A stretch of DNA of 64,000 bases from an uncultured Clostridium sp. (GCA_964618105.1 CAZUAJ010000001.1:24896-88895); one strand, 5' to 3'. Positions 7,367 to 44,808 are shown, counted from the first letter of the stretch. The notes: generated from the letters alone by a model not told the origin. Translations and numbers: made by a program.

Positions 7367-7729
7367 CTAAATACTTTTATATTTTCTAATTTTAATATAT
7401 GCATATATTGCAGATGCTATACAAACTGTTATAAATACAAAAAGTGTTGTGCTTTCTGCTACACCAGTTTGTGGTAATTTATTTTCTGCTGAAGTGTCTT
7501 TTAAACTATTGTTTTCATTATTTGTATTTGCTTGATTATTAGTTTCTTCATTGTTTGATATTTCATTATTTCCTACATTATTTGTTTCGTTATTTTTCTC
7601 TTTTTCTGTATTTTCATCTATAATAAAATCAGCATCGTCAAAAGCCTTTACTGAAGAAACACTCAATGTAAAAAGCATAAGTACTGCTATAATCATAATA
7701 AATACTATCATTATTTTTTTATTTTTCAT
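7367..7729 (-). CDS. Small LPQTG cell-wall anchored protein, N/E/T-rich low complexity
   Basis: Signal peptide, LPQTG sorting motif then a hydrophobic stretch and KIRKYKSI positive tail; TTGACT-17-TAAAAT promoter upstream. Confidence 0.7.
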   Translation of the reverse strand: MKNKKIMIVFIMIIAVLMLFTLSVSSVKAFDDADFIIDENTEKEKNNETNNVGNNEISNNEETNNQANTNNENNSLKDTSAENKLPQTGVAESTTLFVFITVCIASAIYAYIKIRKYKSI

Positions 7730-12618: not shown

Positions 12619-13968
<1,350 letters not shown>

Positions 13969-14290: not shown

Positions 14291-14468
14291 ATGCGAAGTA
14301 GACAGCTAATCAAATTGCTAAAGCAAAATGGTTGGCACGAAGTATCTCAAAATGGTTCTCACTTAAAGATGAGAAAACGGTAATCAAATAGAAATAATAC
14401 CGGTACATAATAAAGATATTCCAATCGGAACAGCTGAAGCAATACTTAAAAGGACAGGGCTAAAGTGA
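14291..14468 (+). pseudogene. hicA: HicA toxin gene interrupted by a 1-nt frameshift at the A4 run (14375-14378)
   Basis: Frame 1 reads MRSRQLIKLLKQNGWHEVSQNGSHLKMRKR*. Shifted frame continues ENGNQIEIIPVHNKDIPIGTAEAILKRTGLK*. Together these align with HicA (GSHxxxxHP...VPxHxKDLxxGTLxxILKQAGL). Confidence 0.7.
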
Positions 14469-14607
14469 TTAGCCCTTCCTACAACATATATAATATAATT
14501 TTCAGTTTATTAAGGAGAAGGCTTAATTTTATATTATATTAATTATTGCTGATTCACTGCGCATTATTTTCTTCTTTCTATTTTTTAATAATTTGGAGGG
14601 TTTTAAA

Positions 14608-15000
14608 ATGAAAAAAGGATTAACTGTCTTTCCTGCAATATTTACATTTGATGGTAAATATTATAATGTTGACTTTATAGATTTAAAATGCTGTTCAACT
14701 TTCGGAGACAGTATACAAGATGCCTATTTAATGGCTCAAAATGCTATGGGCTTATATTTAGATAATCTTACTAATTTTCCAAGTCCAACTTTAGATGTTT
14801 CAGGTATTTTATTGGATAAAAATCAATTTGTATCATTTGTAAGTATTGACATGGACGAATATCGAAAAAAATTTAACAATAAATCTATAAAGAAGACTTT
14901 ATCAATACCAGAATGGTTGAATTATTTATCTGAAAAAAACAATATAAACTTTTCTCAAGTTTTGCAAGAAGCATTGAAAGAAAAACTAGGTATTGACTAA
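14608..15000 (+). CDS. hicB: HicB family antitoxin (UPF0150 N-domain plus C-terminal DNA-binding tail)
   Basis: FPAIFTFDGKYYNVDFIDLKCCSTFGDSIQDAYLMAQNAMGLYL matches the HicB N-terminal fold; RBS GGAGGG before ATG 14608. Confidence 0.7.
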   Translation: MKKGLTVFPAIFTFDGKYYNVDFIDLKCCSTFGDSIQDAYLMAQNAMGLYLDNLTNFPSPTLDVSGILLDKNQFVSFVSIDMDEYRKKFNNKSIKKTLSIPEWLNYLSEKNNINFSQVLQEALKEKLGID

Positions 15001-16368: not shown

Positions 16369-16662
16369 CTATAATTTTCTGCCGTTTCCCCAAGTTCTAC
16401 CATTTCTAAAAGTTACATATAAATTTCCATTATAATCAACAGCGATTAACGATGCATCATTGGAATTACTAGCTATTAATAACCCTTTTGAATATAGTGG
16501 AATTGTAATATTTCCCATCTCTATGTCTTCGCCAAAACTTATTACTGCAAATCTTATAAACGTATTTAATATATCTTTATTATTATTATCTATATAAAAA
16601 TTAACCGTTTCTGAATAATATTCATTTCCGTCAATATCTCTAAAATTTCCTACTTTTTTCAT
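16369..16662 (-). CDS. Tail-fibre-associated paralog P3 (97 aa)
   Basis: N-terminus MKKVGNFRDIDGNEYY shares a motif with P1 and P2; no SD. Confidence 0.5.
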   Translation of the reverse strand: MKKVGNFRDIDGNEYYSETVNFYIDNNNKDILNTFIRFAVISFGEDIEMGNITIPLYSKGLLIASNSNDASLIAVDYNGNLYVTFRNGRTWGNGRKL

Positions 16663-16680
16663 AATATATAAGCACTTAAA

Positions 16681-17124
16681 CTATGCACTTGATACTAGTA
16701 TCATATCTTTAACGTAATTTTGAAATTCTGTCTCAGTAAATTCTCTCCACAAAAGGCTTCTCATTCTATTATGATTAAGTATTTTCATATACCACTCATC
16801 ATTATAATTAGGACTATAAATAAAAATATAGTTATAACCATCTTCTGCTTTGTAAATATATATATTTTTTTTATATTTACTCAAATCCCACGGTACAATA
16901 GGAGATATTATAATTTTATTATTTCTATCTATATTAACAAATCCAGCTATCGCACTATCGTAATAATCCAAATTACTCATAAACATGGTTAATTGTTGAT
17001 AACCTGGAGTGGAACTCCAAAGTCCTATTAAATAATATTTATTTCTTGAACCCCAAAATTTACGTTGAGTTTCTGGATAATACTTATTACCTGCTTGATC
17101 AACTAAATATCCACTATAATTCAT
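16681..17124 (-). CDS. Tail-fibre-associated paralog P2 (147 aa)
   Basis: N-terminus MNYSGYLVDQAGNKYYP; no SD; 13 nt after the P1 stop. Confidence 0.5.
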   Translation of the reverse strand: MNYSGYLVDQAGNKYYPETQRKFWGSRNKYYLIGLWSSTPGYQQLTMFMSNLDYYDSAIAGFVNIDRNNKIIISPIVPWDLSKYKKNIYIYKAEDGYNYIFIYSPNYNDEWYMKILNHNRMRSLLWREFTETEFQNYVKDMILVSSA

Positions 17125-17138
17125 ATATTTTTTGTTAT

Positions 17139-17591
17139 TTAATTTAGCTTCCTTATTTTGACTTCAAAATTTGTTGGGTTGATATTTGCATCATTCCTAG
17201 TAAAATATAAATATACTCCTTTTTCAGAATTAAATAATGGTACGGTTCTTTCTGTTTCTCCACCTTCACAGACAACCTTAACTCTTGAGTCTCCTTGTGT
17301 TGCCGTGCCATAATAGTTAGCTAAAACGTCTATTCTAGGTCTTACAACTACACTTGAACCATTATATCCACAATTTATTGTTAATATTGCATATAGTGTT
17401 GACCTGTAATTAGAACTTCCTTGTGGATTAAAATTATAAGACATAGCAATTTCATATATGTCACCAATTTTTACTCCATTTATTCGCATATATTCAGTAT
17501 TATCGGAAATTTTACCTATACTATATCCTAATTCTTTAGTCAAAAAATACTTATTGCCATCCTTATCTTCAAAATGCCCTACATAGTTCAT
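17139..17591 (-). CDS. Tail-fibre-associated paralog P1 (150 aa)
   Basis: N-terminus MNYVGHFEDKDGNKYF; ATG overlaps the leader ORF stop (ATGA). Confidence 0.5.
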   Translation of the reverse strand: MNYVGHFEDKDGNKYFLTKELGYSIGKISDNTEYMRINGVKIGDIYEIAMSYNFNPQGSSNYRSTLYAILTINCGYNGSSVVVRPRIDVLANYYGTATQGDSRVKVVCEGGETERTVPLFNSEKGVYLYFTRNDANINPTNFEVKIRKLN

Positions 17592-17743
17592 CCGCTATCA
17601 CGGAGAGTGCTTAATAATTCACTCTCCTTTCTCCTAAGGAAGCTAAGCCAATTAAATAACTTGCCTCCTTCCTTGTTTTGTAAAAACACTTGTGTGTGTG
17701 TGTGTGTGTGTGTGTACGGCCTCAAGGCTTTCAACAGTTTCAT
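17588..17743 (-). CDS. 51-codon leader ORF containing the (CA)12 tract (encodes THTHTHT)
   Basis: RBS AAGGAGGAA 7 nt before ATG right after the tail-fibre stop; terminates TGA overlapping the P1 ATG. Confidence 0.45.
   Translation of the reverse strand: MKLLKALRPYTHTHTHTQVFLQNKEGGKLFNWLSFLRRKESELLSTLRDSG
17602..17627 (-). promoter_or_regulatory. 8-bp hairpin GGAGAGTG-N10-CACTCTCC 10 nt upstream of the P1 start codon
   Basis: Read directly; lies inside the 3' end of the leader ORF. Confidence 0.45.
17691..17715. repeat. Dinucleotide repeat (TG)12.5 on plus strand, (CA)12.5 on the coding minus strand
   Basis: tgtgtgtgtgtgtgtgtgtgtgtgt read directly. Confidence 0.95.
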
Positions 17744-17766
17744 ACACATTCCTCCTTTTTTATTTT

Positions 17767-19239
17767 TTATGACCAACTGTCGGTCACAACAAAAGAGAGA
17801 ACCTTGTTCTTTCCCATATAAATTTGTTCTAAAAATTCACTTTCTAATGCTACTTCCAGTTTATCTTTTTCTGATACTTTTCCTATTGCCATTCCTTTGC
17901 CGGTCGCTCTGAAATCTAATAAAGTAAAGCCTGTTCCTAATGCTAATGACATTATTGTTGGATTTTGATCTGTGAAATAATCATTTACCCAAAACTGAAA
18001 ATCATAAGAATTATCTACACTGAAAATTAAATCAGATAAAACTATATCAGTTTTATCTAGGCTATAACTATTATTATCTACTGTGACATAGGTGTATGAA
18101 CTGCTTAAACTTGTTTTATACCCTATTTTAAAAACATGACTGTTTTTATTATTAACAGAGCTTACATTTGCTTTAAATGTATATTTTACATATGTACCTT
18201 CTTCATTTACAGTTCCATCCTCATTACATCTCATGGCACTTGTGGCTAATATTGTAGGATTAAAATATGGTACACATATATATGTCACTGTTTTAGTTCC
18301 AGTTCTTCCTCTACTATCTGTGACTGTAGCAGTTATCGTTTTAGTTCCAGAACCCTTTAAAACATTAGAAACAAAGTTACTTGAATTATATGTATTGTCG
18401 TCGATGCCTGTTATTTTATAACTTTTTATGGTGGATCCATAAGAACCACTTGCTGTCGTTACAACTTTTAATTTAGATTTATTTTGAACATAGCATCCCC
18501 AACTTGAAGGTACCGTTGAACCGCCTTCACTTATCGTTACTGTGTTTACTGTTGGTTTTATTGTGTTTGGTACTTTTAATTCTACTTCTATACTTTTTGT
18601 TCCAATCAGAGTATTTCCACTGTATGTTTGACAAATTATTGTGCAAGTTCCTTTTTCAGAACTTGGTATTTGACTTGCTAGACTTAAAGGTGTAAACCAA
18701 GTCACAATATCTTCTACTCCACTAGCTATAGTATCACTTGTATTGCCAAAATTATAACTTATTGTATGAGTAAAACTTGAACTAGCTCTATTAGTTGTGA
18801 TTGTTAGGCTACTTCCCATTTCTATACTAGAAGCAGATAGTGTTGGGCTGCTTGCCCTTGCTATTGTTTCTAGTGTTATAGTTTTGCTTATTGTTCCGTT
18901 TGGATAATAGTTGCTCAATTTACCATTCATATACAATTTAATAGCTACAGATTTTGTTCCATCAGCATTATGATTTAAGGTTACTGTTTTAGTGCAAATC
19001 TTTACATAACTATCTGTGTTAAGATTATACTTAGGTGAAAAGCTGTATTTAGTACCGTCAATTGTTAATTCTACAGTTGATGTGCTGTTGTATGGATAAT
19101 ATGAACTATTATTTCTCTTTACATATCCAACAACCGTCAATGTACTCGTATTGTTAGTAATACTTTGTGTGTAGCTATATTCTACTTTTAACGTGAAGCC
19201 CTTACTCGGAGTTCCTATTTCCCCTGTAAATTCCGCCAT
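17767..19239 (-). CDS. Tail fibre or receptor-binding protein (490 aa, Ser/Thr/Asn-rich)
   Basis: Position after Tal, composition typical of fibre proteins. Confidence 0.55.
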   Translation of the reverse strand: MAEFTGEIGTPSKGFTLKVEYSYTQSITNNTSTLTVVGYVKRNNSSYYPYNSTSTVELTIDGTKYSFSPKYNLNTDSYVKICTKTVTLNHNADGTKSVAIKLYMNGKLSNYYPNGTISKTITLETIARASSPTLSASSIEMGSSLTITTNRASSSFTHTISYNFGNTSDTIASGVEDIVTWFTPLSLASQIPSSEKGTCTIICQTYSGNTLIGTKSIEVELKVPNTIKPTVNTVTISEGGSTVPSSWGCYVQNKSKLKVVTTASGSYGSTIKSYKITGIDDNTYNSSNFVSNVLKGSGTKTITATVTDSRGRTGTKTVTYICVPYFNPTILATSAMRCNEDGTVNEEGTYVKYTFKANVSSVNNKNSHVFKIGYKTSLSSSYTYVTVDNNSYSLDKTDIVLSDLIFSVDNSYDFQFWVNDYFTDQNPTIMSLALGTGFTLLDFRATGKGMAIGKVSEKDKLEVALESEFLEQIYMGKNKVLSFVVTDSWS

Positions 19240-19240
19240 A

Positions 19241-21004
19241 TTAGTTCACCACCTTCTTAAATGATAAGTTACCATTTACTCTAGGCATAAAAGCAAAATT
19301 ACCAAGTTTCAAAGAGTTCGTAAATTCCGCATCAGATGCTGTGAATTTATCTCGAATCCAATTCGAAATATTGGTTCCATTATAGTAGATGTTAATTTGA
19401 TCATTTTCTATTTTAAGTTCATATTCGTTTCCAGATTCTCCTAAAACAATATTTCCATTAACAAATCTAATATATTTCAAAAATTCTTGTATTGTTGTAG
19501 AGTTATTATCTGTTGCTTCGATTATTTCATTAAATTTAAAATTAAATTCGGAAGAACTTTCTTCTAATTGGGTTTTTAATGTTCTTTGTTTTGTTTCTAA
19601 GTCACTAACTTTTGTTGTTGTTTCTGATACTGTTTGTTGAATATTACCTAAATTCAAACTTATACTAGTTGTTTTACTTTCTGTTTCACTTATAAAATTA
19701 GATAGCCCTTCAATTCTATCAGTTGTCATTGTTCCTGTAGTTATAAAATCTGCATTTATTTTTCCGTCCATTGTAATAGCTGTTTCAAATGGGCCTTCAT
19801 ATCCATTTGAACTAAAACCTATTCCAGCCAGACCAAATCTCCACACATTTTTTGCATTTTCCTTTGGCAGTTCATCTAAGATTAATATCTCATTTTCATC
19901 AATATACACATAGCCATTTTTATTTAAAGAATTTATTAATTCTGTCTGACCTTTAATTGTTATATCGTGATTTGAAACTTCTTGCCTAATCGTTTCCAAA
20001 GTATCTTTTATATTGTTAAATTTTGTTTTTGCATCTCTCGAGTAATTTCCGAAAGTCAATGATACAATTTTTTCTGAAATTAGATCGTATTCATACTCTA
20101 AAACCTCTGTAAATATATTTACAAAAGGATGAAGAACTTTTATTGTATCTCCTATTTCCAAACTATTGTTAATATTAGAATTAACAGTGTAGCTAACTTG
20201 AGGTGTTGAATTTTGTTCTAAGTATGCTGTAGCTTTTGCTCTTAATTCTTCTAAAAGCTTTTCTTCTGTTTGTTCTTCTGTTTCAAGTTCAGTTTGAAAC
20301 TCTACTATTCTTGTATATGGCACTTCATATTGAATTTTACTTTTAAGATATGGTTCTGGTAATAGAAGTCCATCACGTCCAACAGCTAAAAGCTTAGTGC
20401 ATACGTTTGACCAATCTTCAAAAATCTCAAATCCTTGCATATTTTTTCCGTAAGCAACTGTTTCCCCATTATCATGTCCAACATTTTGTTTAAAACTAAT
20501 ATCCCAATTATCTGCATCAAATACACCGTTCCACTTTTCTTCAAAAATAGTCCATGCTTCAAATAAACTCTTTCGAATAAAATATGATGTATTTGTATTC
20601 TCTACGTTAGAATCCGCAATATTAAAAGGACTCTCTGTATCAGTCCTTTCATTTATATATTTTAATCCATTTAGTCCATTTACATTTGTAGGTCTAACAT
20701 CTAATAGCATGTAGTTTTTTGAATCAAATATAACATGTTCAGCTTTGAACGAAATTTTATTTGTACTGTATTTTATGTCTTCAGAAATTCTAAAAGCTTG
20801 TGGTTTTAATTTTGATTTAGTTTTTACAACACATAGTTTGTCTTTACTAATATATTGTTTAAATTTAATTGGTATTTCTACATCAATATACCAGCCATTC
20901 AATGATTTTTTGTGTGTTTCGTGACAATATAGCGGATTGATAATTATATTTCCAGCAGAACTAAAATCTCGATCTATAGCATCAAATATTTTGATCATAG
21001 CCAT
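19241..21004 (-). CDS. Tail-associated lysin / prophage endopeptidase tail protein (Tal)
   Basis: 587 aa after Dit, siphovirus order. Confidence 0.6.
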   Translation of the reverse strand: MAMIKIFDAIDRDFSSAGNIIINPLYCHETHKKSLNGWYIDVEIPIKFKQYISKDKLCVVKTKSKLKPQAFRISEDIKYSTNKISFKAEHVIFDSKNYMLLDVRPTNVNGLNGLKYINERTDTESPFNIADSNVENTNTSYFIRKSLFEAWTIFEEKWNGVFDADNWDISFKQNVGHDNGETVAYGKNMQGFEIFEDWSNVCTKLLAVGRDGLLLPEPYLKSKIQYEVPYTRIVEFQTELETEEQTEEKLLEELRAKATAYLEQNSTPQVSYTVNSNINNSLEIGDTIKVLHPFVNIFTEVLEYEYDLISEKIVSLTFGNYSRDAKTKFNNIKDTLETIRQEVSNHDITIKGQTELINSLNKNGYVYIDENEILILDELPKENAKNVWRFGLAGIGFSSNGYEGPFETAITMDGKINADFITTGTMTTDRIEGLSNFISETESKTTSISLNLGNIQQTVSETTTKVSDLETKQRTLKTQLEESSSEFNFKFNEIIEATDNNSTTIQEFLKYIRFVNGNIVLGESGNEYELKIENDQINIYYNGTNISNWIRDKFTASDAEFTNSLKLGNFAFMPRVNGNLSFKKVVN

Positions 21005-21675
21005 CTATCCTTTCTCTTGATTTTTATTGTCATGTCACCACTATGCACACTAATGTTGTTATTTCCTGGCGAAAGTTTAGGAAATTCATATCCTATATCC
21101 AAATTTCTATTTCTGTTAAGTCCTTCGTACAATGCATTCATTTCTTCACAATCTATCTCTACGTATGTATCATTTGTATTGAATTTGTATTTAAACCTGA
21201 TACTTCCAATAGTCAAATCAACTGATTCATTCGTACCTTTTTCGAGTCTAATGAGTGGTTTACTTTCTATATTTCCATTATTTGATACGATGTTAGTACA
21301 TACTTCATAAGTATCATTTTTGTTATACTTAAATGGTTGACAGTAAAAGGTAACTGTTCCCTTTCTTAGTCGCAGCAACCTTTCTAAATTTATTTGTTCA
21401 TATACTGCGGCCTTATATACTTTATCGTTTTCATTTTCAAATGTCAGATCTCCTTTTCCACTAAAATACTGTAGAATTTTATTAATATCTGCATCCTTCT
21501 TAATTCCAATTTCTACATTTTTATTGTATGATTTATAGCCAAGTTCTTCTATAATTGTTCCATCTCTACCATCAATAGATGTTTCCTTAATTTTTATAGC
21601 AGAACTTGAAATTGGTGGTTCTGAACATATTATCAGACCACCAATAGTATTACTATTTACACCTTTAAAAATCAT
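20995..21675 (-). CDS. Distal tail protein (Dit, phage tail family)
   Basis: 226 aa directly after TMP. Confidence 0.6.
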   Translation of the reverse strand: MIFKGVNSNTIGGLIICSEPPISSSAIKIKETSIDGRDGTIIEELGYKSYNKNVEIGIKKDADINKILQYFSGKGDLTFENENDKVYKAAVYEQINLERLLRLRKGTVTFYCQPFKYNKNDTYEVCTNIVSNNGNIESKPLIRLEKGTNESVDLTIGSIRFKYKFNTNDTYVEIDCEEMNALYEGLNRNRNLDIGYEFPKLSPGNNNISVHSGDMTIKIKRKDRWL

Positions 21676-21676
21676 T

Positions 21677-23872
21677 TTAATACACCATCTCAGCTATTTT
21701 TGAATCAACAAAATTGCCTACCTCTCTGTCGTTTAATTCTATTTTCATTTCTTTTAATGCAGTTTTAAAAGCTTGTACTAAATTACTGTTTAAAGAATCA
21801 TTTTGTATGTTTTTATTTGACTTTATCTCCATAGAAGCATCGAATTCAGTTGGAATTGAATTTTGCATATCTTCTGAAACACCTTTCATAGTGTCTGTAA
21901 ATCCTTCACCTAATCCTAGTGCTAAATTTTCACCTATTTCATTTTTAAACAATGTTGAAGGAGAATGTATTCCAAAAAAATTCTTAATTTTATCAGTCAA
22001 ACCTTTTAATAATCCCTTACATTGATTCCAAAGCCATGTTCCCAAACCAGACATGCCTTCCCATAATCCTTTTAATAAATTTCTTCCTACATCTTTAATT
22101 GAAGTGATTCCATTTAGTAATCCTTTAACAATTGAACTTATAATTTGAGGAATTTTTGAAAGCAATTGTGGGATTGCTTTAATTAATCCTACTGCTAATT
22201 CTCCAATTAATTTTCCCGCAGCCTTTACAATTCTAGCTATCATATCTGGATTTGTTAATTTTGTAACTAATTTTTCTATAATTATTGGTATTTTTTCTAT
22301 CAATATAGGCAAAGCTTCAATAAGTCCTTCAGCTAATCCAAGTATTAATTCAATTCCTGCATCTATTATAGTATCGATATTATCAATTAAAGTTTCTGCT
22401 AAATTCAATATTGCTTCAATTGCAATTGGAATTAATTTTGGAAGTGTTTGTGATATTCCACTTATTAATTCATTTAATATATCTATTCCCATTTGAAGTA
22501 TTGCTGGTAAATTTGCTATTATCTTAGTTAATAATTCATTTATAATAGTAGAAACTAAAGGTCCAATTTCTGGTACCATTGTTAGTACACCTTCAATTAA
22601 CTTAGATAAAATGTTTTCTCCAGCTTGTAGTATATTAGGCAATTGTTCAATTATTTTTTGTGCCAGTTGTATTACAAGCTCTACTACTCCATCTATAATT
22701 ATCTCAACTCGAGGTAGCAAATTTGCTGCAGCGGTGGTCACACTGTCCACTAAATTATTAATAAGTACATCAAAATTGGCATTATCGTCAGCTATGCCTG
22801 TCAACATGTTTTGCCATGCCGATTTCATAGAATTAACGGATCCTTGGATTGTTGTGGAAGCCTCTTTGGCCGTAGTCCCTGTTATTCCAAGTTCTCCTTG
22901 AATCACATGAATTGCTTGATACACATCATTTAAACTACTTATGTCGTATTTGACACCTGTTATTTTTTGAGCATCTGAAAGAAGTCTTTCCATTTCAGAT
23001 TTTGTTCCACCATAACCAAGTTTCAGATTATCTAGCATGGTGTAATTCTGTTTGGCGAAACCTTGATAAGCATTTTGTATCATCGACATATCAGTTCCCA
23101 TTTTATTCGCATTGTCTGCCATATCTGTTATCGCCATATCTGCAACTGTGGCACTTTTTGCAGTATCATTGTTTAAGCTTTGCAAAAGACTTGCCGAAAA
23201 GCTTGTAACAGTTTCCATATATTCATTCGCCGAGAGCCCCGCTGTTTTATAAGCATTATTAGCATATTTTTCAACTGTAGATGCATTTTTTTTAAATAGT
23301 GTTTCTACACCTCCGATAAGTTGCTCATAATCTGCATAGCTCTCCAATGCCTGTTTTCCAACTTGAATAAATAAGCTTCCAAGTTCTTTTACTACACTTC
23401 CAAGTTTTTTTACACCTGATACAATGGCTTCACTTAATATATTAGCTTTTAATATATCTCCAAATTTTAAGACTCCTCCACCTGCATCATCAAAGCCTTT
23501 TTTCATATCCTTCAATTCTTTTGTGCTTTTATCAGTTTGATTTTCCATCGAAGCTAACTGTGTTTCGGCATTGTTTAATTGTGTTTTAAATGATCTTACT
23601 TTTTCATTGTTAGCTCCATATTCTTTTTCGGCCTTATTTAATGCTTCTCTCAAATTGTTTACTTTTTCTCTTTGTTCTTTAATTGTAATATTAGTATTAT
23701 CGTAAGTAGATTTAGCCTCTTTTACGGTTTTTTCTCCATTTGCAAATTGAACGTTTGTAAGTTTTAATTCGCTAGAAACTTCTTTTAAAGAACTGGTTAT
23801 TTCTTTTAAGGCTTTTCTATACTCACTCTCACCTGATAATTTAACTGAACCTCCAAAGCTACTATTTCCCAT
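21677..23872 (-). CDS. Tape measure protein
   Basis: 731 aa, long coiled-coil N-terminal part, A/G/I/L-rich helical repeats. Confidence 0.8.
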   Translation of the reverse strand: MGNSSFGGSVKLSGESEYRKALKEITSSLKEVSSELKLTNVQFANGEKTVKEAKSTYDNTNITIKEQREKVNNLREALNKAEKEYGANNEKVRSFKTQLNNAETQLASMENQTDKSTKELKDMKKGFDDAGGGVLKFGDILKANILSEAIVSGVKKLGSVVKELGSLFIQVGKQALESYADYEQLIGGVETLFKKNASTVEKYANNAYKTAGLSANEYMETVTSFSASLLQSLNNDTAKSATVADMAITDMADNANKMGTDMSMIQNAYQGFAKQNYTMLDNLKLGYGGTKSEMERLLSDAQKITGVKYDISSLNDVYQAIHVIQGELGITGTTAKEASTTIQGSVNSMKSAWQNMLTGIADDNANFDVLINNLVDSVTTAAANLLPRVEIIIDGVVELVIQLAQKIIEQLPNILQAGENILSKLIEGVLTMVPEIGPLVSTIINELLTKIIANLPAILQMGIDILNELISGISQTLPKLIPIAIEAILNLAETLIDNIDTIIDAGIELILGLAEGLIEALPILIEKIPIIIEKLVTKLTNPDMIARIVKAAGKLIGELAVGLIKAIPQLLSKIPQIISSIVKGLLNGITSIKDVGRNLLKGLWEGMSGLGTWLWNQCKGLLKGLTDKIKNFFGIHSPSTLFKNEIGENLALGLGEGFTDTMKGVSEDMQNSIPTEFDASMEIKSNKNIQNDSLNSNLVQAFKTALKEMKIELNDREVGNFVDSKIAEMVY

Positions 23873-43380: not shown

Positions 43381-44808
43381 ATGAACAAAAAGGGATTTAG
43401 AGCTACTAACGGCGAAGGTTACGTTGGAACAACAATTCAAAAGATAAAAAAGCAATTTGACAACTCTAAAATGTGTAGTATTTGTATGTCTTGTACTAAT
43501 AGATCTATGTGTAATAATCGTATAGATTGGACCAAATGTGAAAAATGCAAGAATTGTAAAGAAGAATGTCTTAAATATTGTGACCGCTTCTATTGTAGAA
43601 AAATGGTACAAGCTCAAATAACTATTGATGGTAAACAAGTTTCTGTTGCTTCAAAAAGAACTCGAAAAGAAAGTATTGAAGAAAAAAAGCGTAAAGAATC
43701 TGATGTGCTTTGTGGCACCTATGTAAAAAAAGACAATAGGACATTATACCATTTTTGTAAAGAAGTGGAAGCAGAAAAAATCGCAGCTAATAAAATTAAG
43801 CAATCTACACAAAATAGAAATAATAATACCTTTGACAAAATAAAAAATGCCGATTTCTTCAGTAAGAGTATACAAAAAACTACTAAAACTGATATAGATA
43901 ATTTTATTAGTCAATATAAATACCTTTCACAGTCCGAATTAGATAAGATTTCAAATATCATTAAAAGCGGTTTCGAAAGAGCCATGGCAAGTGATGTAAT
44001 AACATACAAACAAAATTTTATGAGAAATTATTGTGTTCCCTGCTCCGAAAAACAAGAGAAAGAAGTTGTTGCCTTTGAGCTAGAAGAATTTATAACTTTA
44101 ATAAAATATGTACTCACAACCAATAAATTGATTAAAAGTAGTAAATGTAATTATGATAGTCGCACAATTAGAAATATTATAATTCTTTCATTTTTGTCAC
44201 TTACTCGAATCGGTGAAATGGGAGCACTTGATATAGATAAGCATATTGATTTACAAAAAAAATATATCAGTATTGAAAGAACTCTTACAGAAGATGTTGC
44301 AGGAAAAGTTATAATGGGAACAACAACAAAAACTGGTAATCGCCAGAAAAAGGTTGAAAAAAGAATAATAAACTTCAACATCTTTTCTGAAGAACTTTTT
44401 TTAATGATAATTAGAGATCAAATCGAAAACTCAAGAAATAATATCAATAATATCGAAAATTTGCTTTTCTGTGACAAAAATGGGAACTATATAGTTCCTT
44501 CAGCAATTACTAATATATTTAAACGAATATGTCGTGATGCAGGTGTAAAAGTTAACTTAACAACAGGGTGCTTCATACACATGACACGACATACTGCTAT
44601 ATCTTTTATGATCTCATTAGGGTATGACCTGGTATTTATAACATCTTTTTCTGGTCACAGCAGTATAAAAGAAATTGAACGAACTTATGGCCATATTTTA
44701 AATGATTATAGAAAAAAGAAATTGGAAAATCCGAATTTTCATTACGAAAAAGAAGATATTATTACAAAAGAAATTATAAATTTAGCCCAAAAATGTTATT
44801 TACATTAA
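43381..44808 (+). CDS. int: Tyrosine integrase with long N-terminal Cys-rich region
   Basis: C-terminal RHTAISFMISLGYD...GHSSIKEIERTYGHIL (R..H..R..Y); adjacent to tRNA attL. Confidence 0.8.
   Translation: MNKKGFRATNGEGYVGTTIQKIKKQFDNSKMCSICMSCTNRSMCNNRIDWTKCEKCKNCKEECLKYCDRFYCRKMVQAQITIDGKQVSVASKRTRKESIEEKKRKESDVLCGTYVKKDNRTLYHFCKEVEAEKIAANKIKQSTQNRNNNTFDKIKNADFFSKSIQKTTKTDIDNFISQYKYLSQSELDKISNIIKSGFERAMASDVITYKQNFMRNYCVPCSEKQEKEVVAFELEEFITLIKYVLTTNKLIKSSKCNYDSRTIRNIIILSFLSLTRIGEMGALDIDKHIDLQKKYISIERTLTEDVAGKVIMGTTTKTGNRQKKVEKRIINFNIFSEELFLMIIRDQIENSRNNINNIENLLFCDKNGNYIVPSAITNIFKRICRDAGVKVNLTTGCFIHMTRHTAISFMISLGYDLVFITSFSGHSSIKEIERTYGHILNDYRKKKLENPNFHYEKEDIITKEIINLAQKCYLH

Follow-up and report, generated by a model that had tools for sequence, protein, structure and literature searches.

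A probable split tail fiber with exchangeable tips in a prophage of an uncultured Clostridium, and a candidate repeat-bearing leader that may gate tip translation

Gene organization of the tip locus

The 64,000-nucleotide (nt) stretch of DNA analyzed here (hereafter the window), from an uncultured Clostridium sp., contains at positions 16369-17591 three tandem genes, P1, P2 and P3, whose products share a short N-terminal motif. The genes belong to a siphovirus-type prophage that spans approximately 15-45 kilobases (kb) of the window, in which terminase, portal and capsid genes are present and a tyrosine integrase gene (43381-44808) adjoins a tRNA-Thr. The last part of the late operon is encoded on the minus strand of the window. 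Gene calls confirmed the three open reading frames (ORFs) at the coordinates and with the N-termini reported in a first-pass annotation of this DNA and, together with Pfam and PHROG matches, also bore out its placement of the three genes between the tail fiber and the lysis cassette. The features of this region, with lengths in amino acids (aa), are as follows.

21677-23872, minus strand: tape-measure protein (TMP)
20995-21675, minus strand: Dit (SPP1_Dit)
19241-21004, minus strand: Tal (Prophage_tail)
17767-19239, minus strand: DUF859 tail fiber, 490 aa, the proposed constant shaft (Pfam DUF859, E-value 1e-59; phrog_372 'tail protein', E-value 3e-98)
17770-17826, minus strand: proposed socket QIYMGKNKVLSFVVTDSWS, the last 19 codons of the fiber
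17588-17766, minus strand: leader between the fiber stop and the P1 start
17139-17591, minus strand: P1, 150 aa, putative plug (residues 1-16) and beta-sandwich head
16681-17124, minus strand: P2, 147 aa, putative plug and 'B' domain
16369-16662, minus strand: P3, 97 aa, putative plug and N-domain, a headless 'C' tip

The gaps between P1 and P2 and between P2 and P3 measure 14 and 18 nt, respectively, and P3 is followed by an XhlA-like gene, a holin gene and an M23 endolysin gene.

A short N-terminal motif is shared by otherwise dissimilar proteins

The first-pass annotation had described a common 16-aa N-terminus opening with MNY in all three proteins. The common segment stands, but P3 begins with MKK (its closest homolog, P0016, begins with MNY), and the consensus of the three proteins is M-[NK]-[YK]-x-G-x-[FL]-x-D-x-x-G-N-x-Y-[YF], with nothing else shared. 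Pairwise BLASTP aligned residues 1-16 only in both pairs involving P1 (E-values 5e-4 and 5e-4) and the first 32 residues only of P2 and P3 (6e-3), and hhalign on the family profiles recovered N-terminal columns only (1-23, 1-16 and 1-29; E-values 2e-8, 5e-7 and 1.4e-8), aligning none of the P1, P2 and P3 bodies, which agrees with the dissimilarity noted earlier. The shared N-terminus is thus far beyond chance. In related loci (designated L001 and so forth), the motif was found at 23 distinct gene starts, each of them an ATG codon (23/23), with residues G5, D9, G12, N13 and Y15 invariant and each encoded through two to four synonymous codons; selection therefore acts on the peptide and not on a DNA site. 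We refer to this segment as the plug, after the role proposed for it below.

A resemblance of the motif core to a calcium-binding loop had also been suggested. The core reads D9-x-[D/E/N/A]11-G12-N13 rather than DxDxDG, with alanine at position 11 in P2, and Pfam gives no match to the motif alone or to the junction peptide alone (described below); the calcium-binding reading was therefore rejected. Judging from structure prediction, the core looks like a tight beta-hairpin turn: in an AlphaFold 2 (AF2) model of P1 the motif forms a low-confidence beta-hairpin with strands at residues 6-8 and 14-16, and this low confidence fits the expectation for a segment that needs a partner. As a side observation, the C-terminal end of P3 (16369-16440, residues 75-96; VDYNGNLYVTFRNGRTWGNGRK) weakly repeats the P2 motif region VDQAGNKYYPETQRKFWGSRNK (BLASTP E-value 0.08) and matches, below threshold, the SBBP beta-propeller repeat. 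The plug may represent a single copy of a beta-hairpin unit that can be reused.

P1-P3 belong to rare families under purifying selection

As the first-pass annotation had stated, the three proteins could not be assigned to a known family, Pfam and PHROGs giving nothing usable. At E-values of up to 1, searches of P1-P3 against both collections returned only noise, with no match to a chaperone family, and tblastn and megablast searches of 50,697 phage records yielded no match for the locus, P2 or the P2-related protein P0021, and only noise (E-values of at least 2) for P1. PDB sequence searches with the tips, the junction and a P1 profile likewise produced only noise. A word-index search of 5.8 billion proteins identified very few relatives (4, 10 and 2 homologs for P1, P2 and P3, respectively); the P2 family was widened by a full hmmsearch of 1.84 billion (1.84e9) representatives, which returned 18 proteins. 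The search for the motif elsewhere that had been recommended was carried out with a degenerate DNA pattern and located it in two IMG/VR contigs, one Clostridia metagenome-assembled genome and three metagenome contigs.

Comparison with these homologs revealed ratios of non-synonymous to synonymous substitution (dN/dS) of 0.13-0.39 at dS of 0.6-2.3, with values of 0.20-0.26 for the P1 family, 0.13-0.37 for P2 and 0.30-0.39 for P3, and intact tip ORFs recur across many independent contigs. P1-P3 are real genes under purifying selection. These data bear directly on the possibility that P1-P3 are decaying, functionless fragments of former one-piece fibers. Such decay could be read into the shortness of P3 relative to 199-aa forms, into an internal deletion in L012 and a remnant in L001 (both described below), and into the lack of Shine-Dalgarno (SD) sequences, but it is very unlikely given the low dN/dS in all three families, the intact ORFs, the maintenance of the motif residues through synonymous changes and the conservation of the 97-aa headless form in P0016, which has the same length as P3 and 67% identity to it.

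The tip bodies are homologous to distal fiber domains

The bodies of P1-P3 recur in other proteins, bona fide fibers among them. P0017 (E-value 4e-86) is a 756-aa DUF859 fiber whose C-terminus is a complete P2-type protein, motif included. In P0019, P0020 and P0024 the P2 body, or B domain, directly follows Phage_fiber_rpt repeats and the protein ends there, and in P0021, P0025, P0028 and P0029 the B domain is followed by differing head domains. P0021, in which the order is base, fiber repeat, B domain and head, is the final tail gene ahead of the holin and lysin genes in two prophages. In P0004, the P1 body is attached to an unrelated N-terminus that includes a coiled-coil stalk. AF2 modeled P1 (predicted local distance difference test, pLDDT, of 77.7) as an all-beta beta-sandwich, and the Foldseek comparison that had been advised gave no PDB match at an E-value of 0.001 or lower for this model; its weak matches in BFVD (best E-value 2.6e-3, template-modeling score of at most 0.44), several of which are phage tail-fiber proteins, are no more than a hint. 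P3 can be aligned to residues 1-97 of proteins of 195-199 aa from L001, L004 and L005. The head of these full-length C-type proteins (LLNGW...LPxGFRP...VSF) matches the C-terminal ends of phrog_3285, phrog_3639 and phrog_3971 (best E-value 3e-6), the first two of which are annotated as 'minor tail protein', and similarity to the C-termini of PHROG minor tail proteins was also found for the head of the first-slot tip of L010. Taken together, these homologies make it very probable that P1-P3 are fiber-tip modules, that is, modules of the distal fiber.

The same homologies weigh on two other explanations for small genes in this position. Fiber assembly chaperones or transient caps, analogous to Tfa and gp38 rather than stable receptor binders, would also be expected as small genes immediately downstream of a fiber gene, and the headless P2 and P3 could be accommodated in that role; chaperone 'caps' on fibers have been described (PMC10579305). 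We consider this explanation unlikely, however, because the homologs of the bodies are built into fibers as C-terminal or neck domains, with the B domain preceding a head in four of the proteins listed above and so not being a removable terminal chaperone, because no chaperone family is matched in Pfam or PHROGs, and because the shaft lacks a distal domain that a chaperone could fold. The slot between fiber and lysis genes also often holds morons, and P1-P3 might accordingly be non-structural proteins at the end of the late operon that, for instance, exclude superinfecting phages or modify the host surface. The B gene does lie beside early genes in L003 and L011. A moron identity is nevertheless extremely unlikely: the bodies are homologous to fiber domains, one homolog is a fiber fusion, an invertible segment accounts for where the gene lies in L003 and L011 (see below), and the cassettes of L001, L004 and L010 are found midway through the tail module, a long way from the lysis genes.

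The order of the tail module in these last loci is itself unusual. In L001 (1-12441), L010 (1-14388) and L004, the fiber and tip cassette directly follows the tape-measure gene and precedes both baseplate-like genes (369-370, 299 and 396-410 aa, with a DUF5048 match in L001 and L012) and a gene for a 1652-aa Kelch/DUF285 protein.

Tips vary in number, slot and head among relatives

The number of tip genes per locus ranges from one in L016 and two in L005 to three in the window, L001, L004 and L006/L007, with two tips plus the remnant of a third in L012. Slots also change, the P1-type body occupying the first slot in the window and the third in L017/L018, and the first-slot tips of L001 and L010 have a common N-terminal half and different heads. 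Variable tip number and slot changes argue against an obligate heterotrimer and for independent, exchangeable modules that require only the plug. Traces of replacement or loss were observed in several loci: the first-slot tip gene is followed by the remnant of a replaced head (...NVSFEVA-stop) in L001 (5950-6000) and L017 (127-177), and a C-type gene in L012 (983-1090) has been cut to MNYSVYLTENKRFYIIVLVNVSFIAEN plus a stop codon by an internal deletion.

A conserved fiber C-terminus accompanies the plug

In every locus for which upstream DNA was available, (Q)IY.G.NKVL[SF]FV[VI]TDSW[SE] and a stop codon close the gene ahead of the first motif gene. This terminus, the proposed socket, is present in the window, L001, L004, L005, L006, L008 and L016, on bodies that differ. 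The window and L006 have it on DUF859 fibers of 490-500 aa, L001 and L004 on an 87-aa Phage_fiber_rpt protein, L005 on yet another protein and L016 on a partial ORF. A DNA pattern for the socket, searched against 2.9 million IMG/VR contigs, matched exactly two contigs, the same two that were matched by the plug pattern.

The fused protein P0017 contains both elements in a single chain, its in-frame junction reading ...NISTMTSFVIAEKWN-MNYSGYF, also given as ...IIDNLSNISTMTSFVIAEKWN-MNYSGYFTDKNGNKYY... The window fiber ends in ...TDSW-S-stop and P1 starts with MNY, and P0017 reads ...EKW-N-MNY; the spacing W-x-MNY is thus alike in the two, and the split form is exactly collinear with the fused form.

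Inversion may link fused and split forms of the junction

Phages L011 and L013 are 98% identical. In L011 the DUF859 fiber runs into a C-terminal domain of its own, and a P2-type gene, preceded by the remnant ...NISTMTSFVIAEKWN, lies convergently on the opposite strand; in L013 the same constant part of the fiber is joined to the P2-type gene in the fused form. Between the two phages, BLAST gives two alignments on opposite strands, and the 32 nt that these have in common fall in an imperfect inverted repeat encoding IIDNLS. The corresponding sites are as follows.

L011, 7971-9140: invertible segment site
L013, 4473-4504: invertible segment site
L003, 5920-5960 and approximately 7600-7640: invertible segment sites

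These alignments indicate that relatives swap a P2-type module onto the DUF859 fiber by inversion, following the logic of the Mu G segment. The silent B copy of L003 reads ...FVITDSWL-stop, followed by an SD sequence and then MNY..., a layout that in the opposite orientation would yield a socket-ended fiber and a free tip, as in the window. Fused and split versions of one junction therefore occur among close relatives.

A split fiber with plug-bearing tips

On this basis, we propose that P1-P3 are probably part of a split fiber, composed of a constant shaft with a C-terminal socket and of one to three exchangeable tips with an N-terminal plug. It also seems rather likely, though somewhat less so, that the tips dock non-covalently through plug and socket. 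An ancestral one-piece fiber (shaft, ...KVLSFVVTDSW-x-MNYxGxFxDxxGNKYY..., distal domain) would have been split at the junction, with the shaft gene stopping just after ...TDSWS and every tip gene opening with the second half of the junction. Strand complementation between the 16-residue beta-hairpin of the tip and the C-terminal strand of the shaft would then rebuild a beta-structure that is contiguous in P0017. The tip genes would be co-transcribed with the late operon, any tip carrying a plug could be mounted, giving a virion population with one to three tip types, and recombination at the conserved plug-coding and intergenic sequences would shuffle the bodies. The earlier suggestion of a docking-type N-terminus on interchangeable tips gains support in both of its parts: the motif co-occurs with the fiber C-terminus KVLSFVVTDSW and P0017 fuses the two, and the bodies are homologous to distal fiber domains, are shuffled between slots and phages, and have had their heads swapped.

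Several points tell against the split-fiber proposal. The virion location of P1-P3 and their binding to the fiber are what we infer from sequence, and the socket and plug sequences are too uniform for co-variation analysis. The predicted fold of P1 has no significant PDB match, the model of P2 is poor (pLDDT 56.7), and P2 and P3 have no recognizable head, so that they could be caps or adaptors and not receptor binders. In the orientation seen, the B gene of L003 and L011 lies outside the late operon, a position that is explained by inversion, and no invertase was found among the genes called within 12-16 kb in L003 and L011.

A leader with a dinucleotide repeat precedes the tip genes

The leader that separates the fiber gene from P1 contains a short ORF with an internal dinucleotide repeat and two hairpins.

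17749-17759, minus strand: strong SD of the leader
17588-17743, minus strand: leader ORF of 51 codons, MKLLKALRPY(TH)n...STLRDSG-stop, with its ATG at 17743
17691-17715, minus strand: (CA)12 repeat, inside the leader ORF
17636-17674, minus strand: hairpin 1, with an SD-like 5' arm
17602-17627, minus strand: hairpin 2, GGAGAGTG/CACTCTCC, with an SD-like 5' arm
L001, 5004-5190; L004, 2984-3163; L005, 3459-3633; L006, 533-718: leader in relatives

The TGA of the leader ORF overlaps the ATG of P1 as ATGA. Over its 175 nt, the leader maintains 77-83% identity across lineages at which the synonymous sites of neighboring genes differ by approximately 50%, and differences in its 3' part are not enriched at third codon positions; this lack of third-position bias indicates that the RNA or DNA is conserved, and not the peptide. 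The position of the repeat is constant in all lineages and its unit is not, being (CA)12 in the window, (TA)11-14+ in L001, L004 and L008, mixed CA/CG in L005 and (GA)14 in L006. Such variation of the unit, with position and length kept, would be expected if selection favored mutability and not a particular sequence. The leader repeat, detected as (TG)12.5, is the sole period-2 array in the 64-kb window, and across the 207 kb examined the leader repeats are the only dinucleotide repeats of at least 7 units. L001 and L002, which are 100% identical over 6229 nt, have 14 and at least 15 AT units, respectively, a single case of length difference in which the L002 contig starts inside the repeat.

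P1, P2 and P3 are not preceded by SD sequences, and the other late genes have strong ones. In L003 and L016, there is no leader and an SD sequence stands directly before the tip gene. The leader ORF is in frame to the ATGA in four of five lineages (probability of at least 4/5, 11/243 = 0.045, at a one-in-three chance each), and the other two leader frames stop at conserved TAA codons in the loops of both hairpins. Coupling of tip translation to a leader ORF framed by a hypermutable repeat would be the simplest reading of this arrangement, and we tentatively propose that the repeat-bearing leader might gate tip translation as a phase-variable contingency switch of new design, which we regard as a serious possibility and not as the expected outcome. 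The tips would be translated by termination-reinitiation from the leader ORF, which bears the only good SD of the cassette, and slippage of the repeat would switch tip synthesis on or off, since a shift by one unit would move termination to the loop stops of the two putatively SD-sequestering hairpins and uncouple the tip genes, which lack SD sequences. If so, lysogens would release virions with and without tips, or with differing doses of them, as a form of host-range bet-hedging. Two results speak against a gate of this kind. The leader ORF is out of frame in L001, one of the five lineages, and the leader hairpins present no compensatory changes in a set of only four distinct sequences, among which RNAalifold supported only hairpin 2 and a 4-base-pair stem, with one G-U change.

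Other roles for the leader were considered and rejected. A promoter-spacing function of the repeat is contradicted by the candidate hexamers, which lie more than 30 nt apart, and neither a promoter nor a terminator was called in the leader spacer on this strand. Ribosomal bypassing and intron splicing were dismissed on account of the lack of matching take-off and landing codons and the presence of an SD sequence and ORF within the leader, and Rfam searches gave no match in the leader, intron and ribozyme families included. Separately, a 21-nt inverted repeat with 81% complementarity (17135-17155 versus 17635-17655) has one copy in the 3' arm of hairpin 1 and the other across the end of P1 and the sequence ahead of P2. 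Long-range RNA pairing or chance could explain it, and it is within what chance would give in AT-rich DNA.

The leader also informs the question of whether tips might be covalently joined to the shaft, through recoding across the leader or a DNA rearrangement, to give a P0017-like product. The collinear W-x-MNY junction of the fused and split forms and the fusion of B modules to fibers by DNA inversion in relatives are both compatible with covalent joining. We nonetheless judge it quite unlikely. All cassettes in the window are co-directional, with no suitable inverted or direct repeats linking the fiber end to the tips, the frame between fiber and first tip varies among loci, the 175-nt spacer has its own SD and ORF without an intron or ribozyme match, and all 23 tip starts have retained an ATG. 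Docking of separately translated tips on the shaft is the reading that we favor.

Comparison with known modular fibers

Secondary receptor-binding proteins (RBPs) with conserved N-terminal docking peptides of 7-29 residues have been described in Klebsiella KP32/KP34-like phages and in K1-5, K1E and SP6 (PMC6872550; PMC13352976). Our comparison set for modular RBPs comprised the Klebsiella KP32/KP34-like phages, Escherichia coli K1-5/K1E, Salmonella SP6 and G7C (Latka et al. 2019, PMC6872550). The window resembles the KP32 and K1-5 systems in that adjacent, otherwise unrelated proteins share only a short N-terminal peptide (16 aa here), which in those phages is thought or shown to mount the RBPs on an anchor, with the bodies exchanged horizontally; the bodies of P1-P3 are likewise distal fiber domains. 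There is, however, no sequence relationship between the systems, and the known ones come from podo- and myophages of Gram-negative hosts, whose tailspikes are depolymerases. These phages anchor their RBPs through a T4gp10-like branching domain or an adaptor, whereas the fiber here matches only DUF859 and phrog_372, and the candidate partner in the window is the last ~12 residues of this siphophage fiber. Unlike the KP32 and K1-5 peptides, plug and socket each make up one half of a junction that a fused homolog carries uninterrupted, and the tips are tiny (97-150 aa).

In T-even phages the distal fiber part is a separate polypeptide, as in gp37 with its gp38 adhesin and in gp36/gp37 of T4. LtfA/LtfB of the T5-like phage DT57C form another two-gene fiber with a separately encoded distal part (PMC4728585). 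In these fibers, as proposed here, the part that determines specificity is separate and joined to the proximal part at its end, but there is one distal partner per fiber type, in contrast to the up to three alternative tips that would share one plug and one shaft in the window. By analogy, what these uncultured Clostridia siphophages carry appears to be a modular RBP equipped with a docking peptide, and not a member of the KP32/K1-5 or LtfA/LtfB families.

The G segment of Mu and the C segment of phage P1 are invertible tail-fiber segments. The comparison of L011 with L013 presents the same design, with convergent alternative C-termini exchanged on one constant N-terminal part through inversion at short inverted repeats within the fiber gene; the window differs in having split genes and no inverted cassette or repeats.

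RBP genes of Campylobacter phages carry poly-G tracts. The phage contingency loci known so far are homopolymer tracts inside genes, as in T2/T4 (Gomez et al. 2025, PMC12633550). The leader repeat resembles them as a hypermutable simple-sequence repeat where slippage alters the reading frame, and differs from the T2/T4 homopolymers in being a dinucleotide repeat of 11-14+ units, with a unit that varies by lineage, in a leader ORF and not in a structural gene. Unlike contingency loci inside genes, it would act by translational coupling on the whole tip cassette.

Almost nothing has been charted of how phages of gut Clostridia recognize their hosts, and Pfam, PHROGs, the PDB and cultured phages contain no relative of any of these modules. 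If a 16-residue plug and a socket of approximately 12 residues can mount arbitrary small tips on a siphophage fiber, the host range of Gram-positive phages could be engineered through the compact plug-and-play interface that they would form. The one junction appears in three natural states, fused (P0017), inversion-swapped (L011/L013) and split (window), and these offer an unusually clear view of how one-piece fibers may turn modular. The leader gate, if true, would extend contingency loci to control of a whole receptor-binding cassette through a leader ORF and translational coupling.

Neighboring genes

The XhlA-like gene that follows P3 (16098-16345, minus strand) appears frameshifted. A good SD and an ATG open MEAIIVALITGRIVINRSCCF, which ends at a stop codon, and the ORF that matches phrog_1863 (LSLIGVVVSNLSS...) runs on in a different frame, starting at a TTG that has no SD. 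A pseudogene, an error in the sequence or programmed frameshifting could account for this. Past the lysis cassette, three short ORFs of 96, 245 and 108 aa (12619-13968), the second with partial Resolvase and Recombinase domains, look like a fragmented large serine recombinase. A HicB-like antitoxin gene (14593-15000) adjoins these ORFs, and beside it lies a 30-aa ORF (14291-14383) that we take to be a HicA-like fragment.

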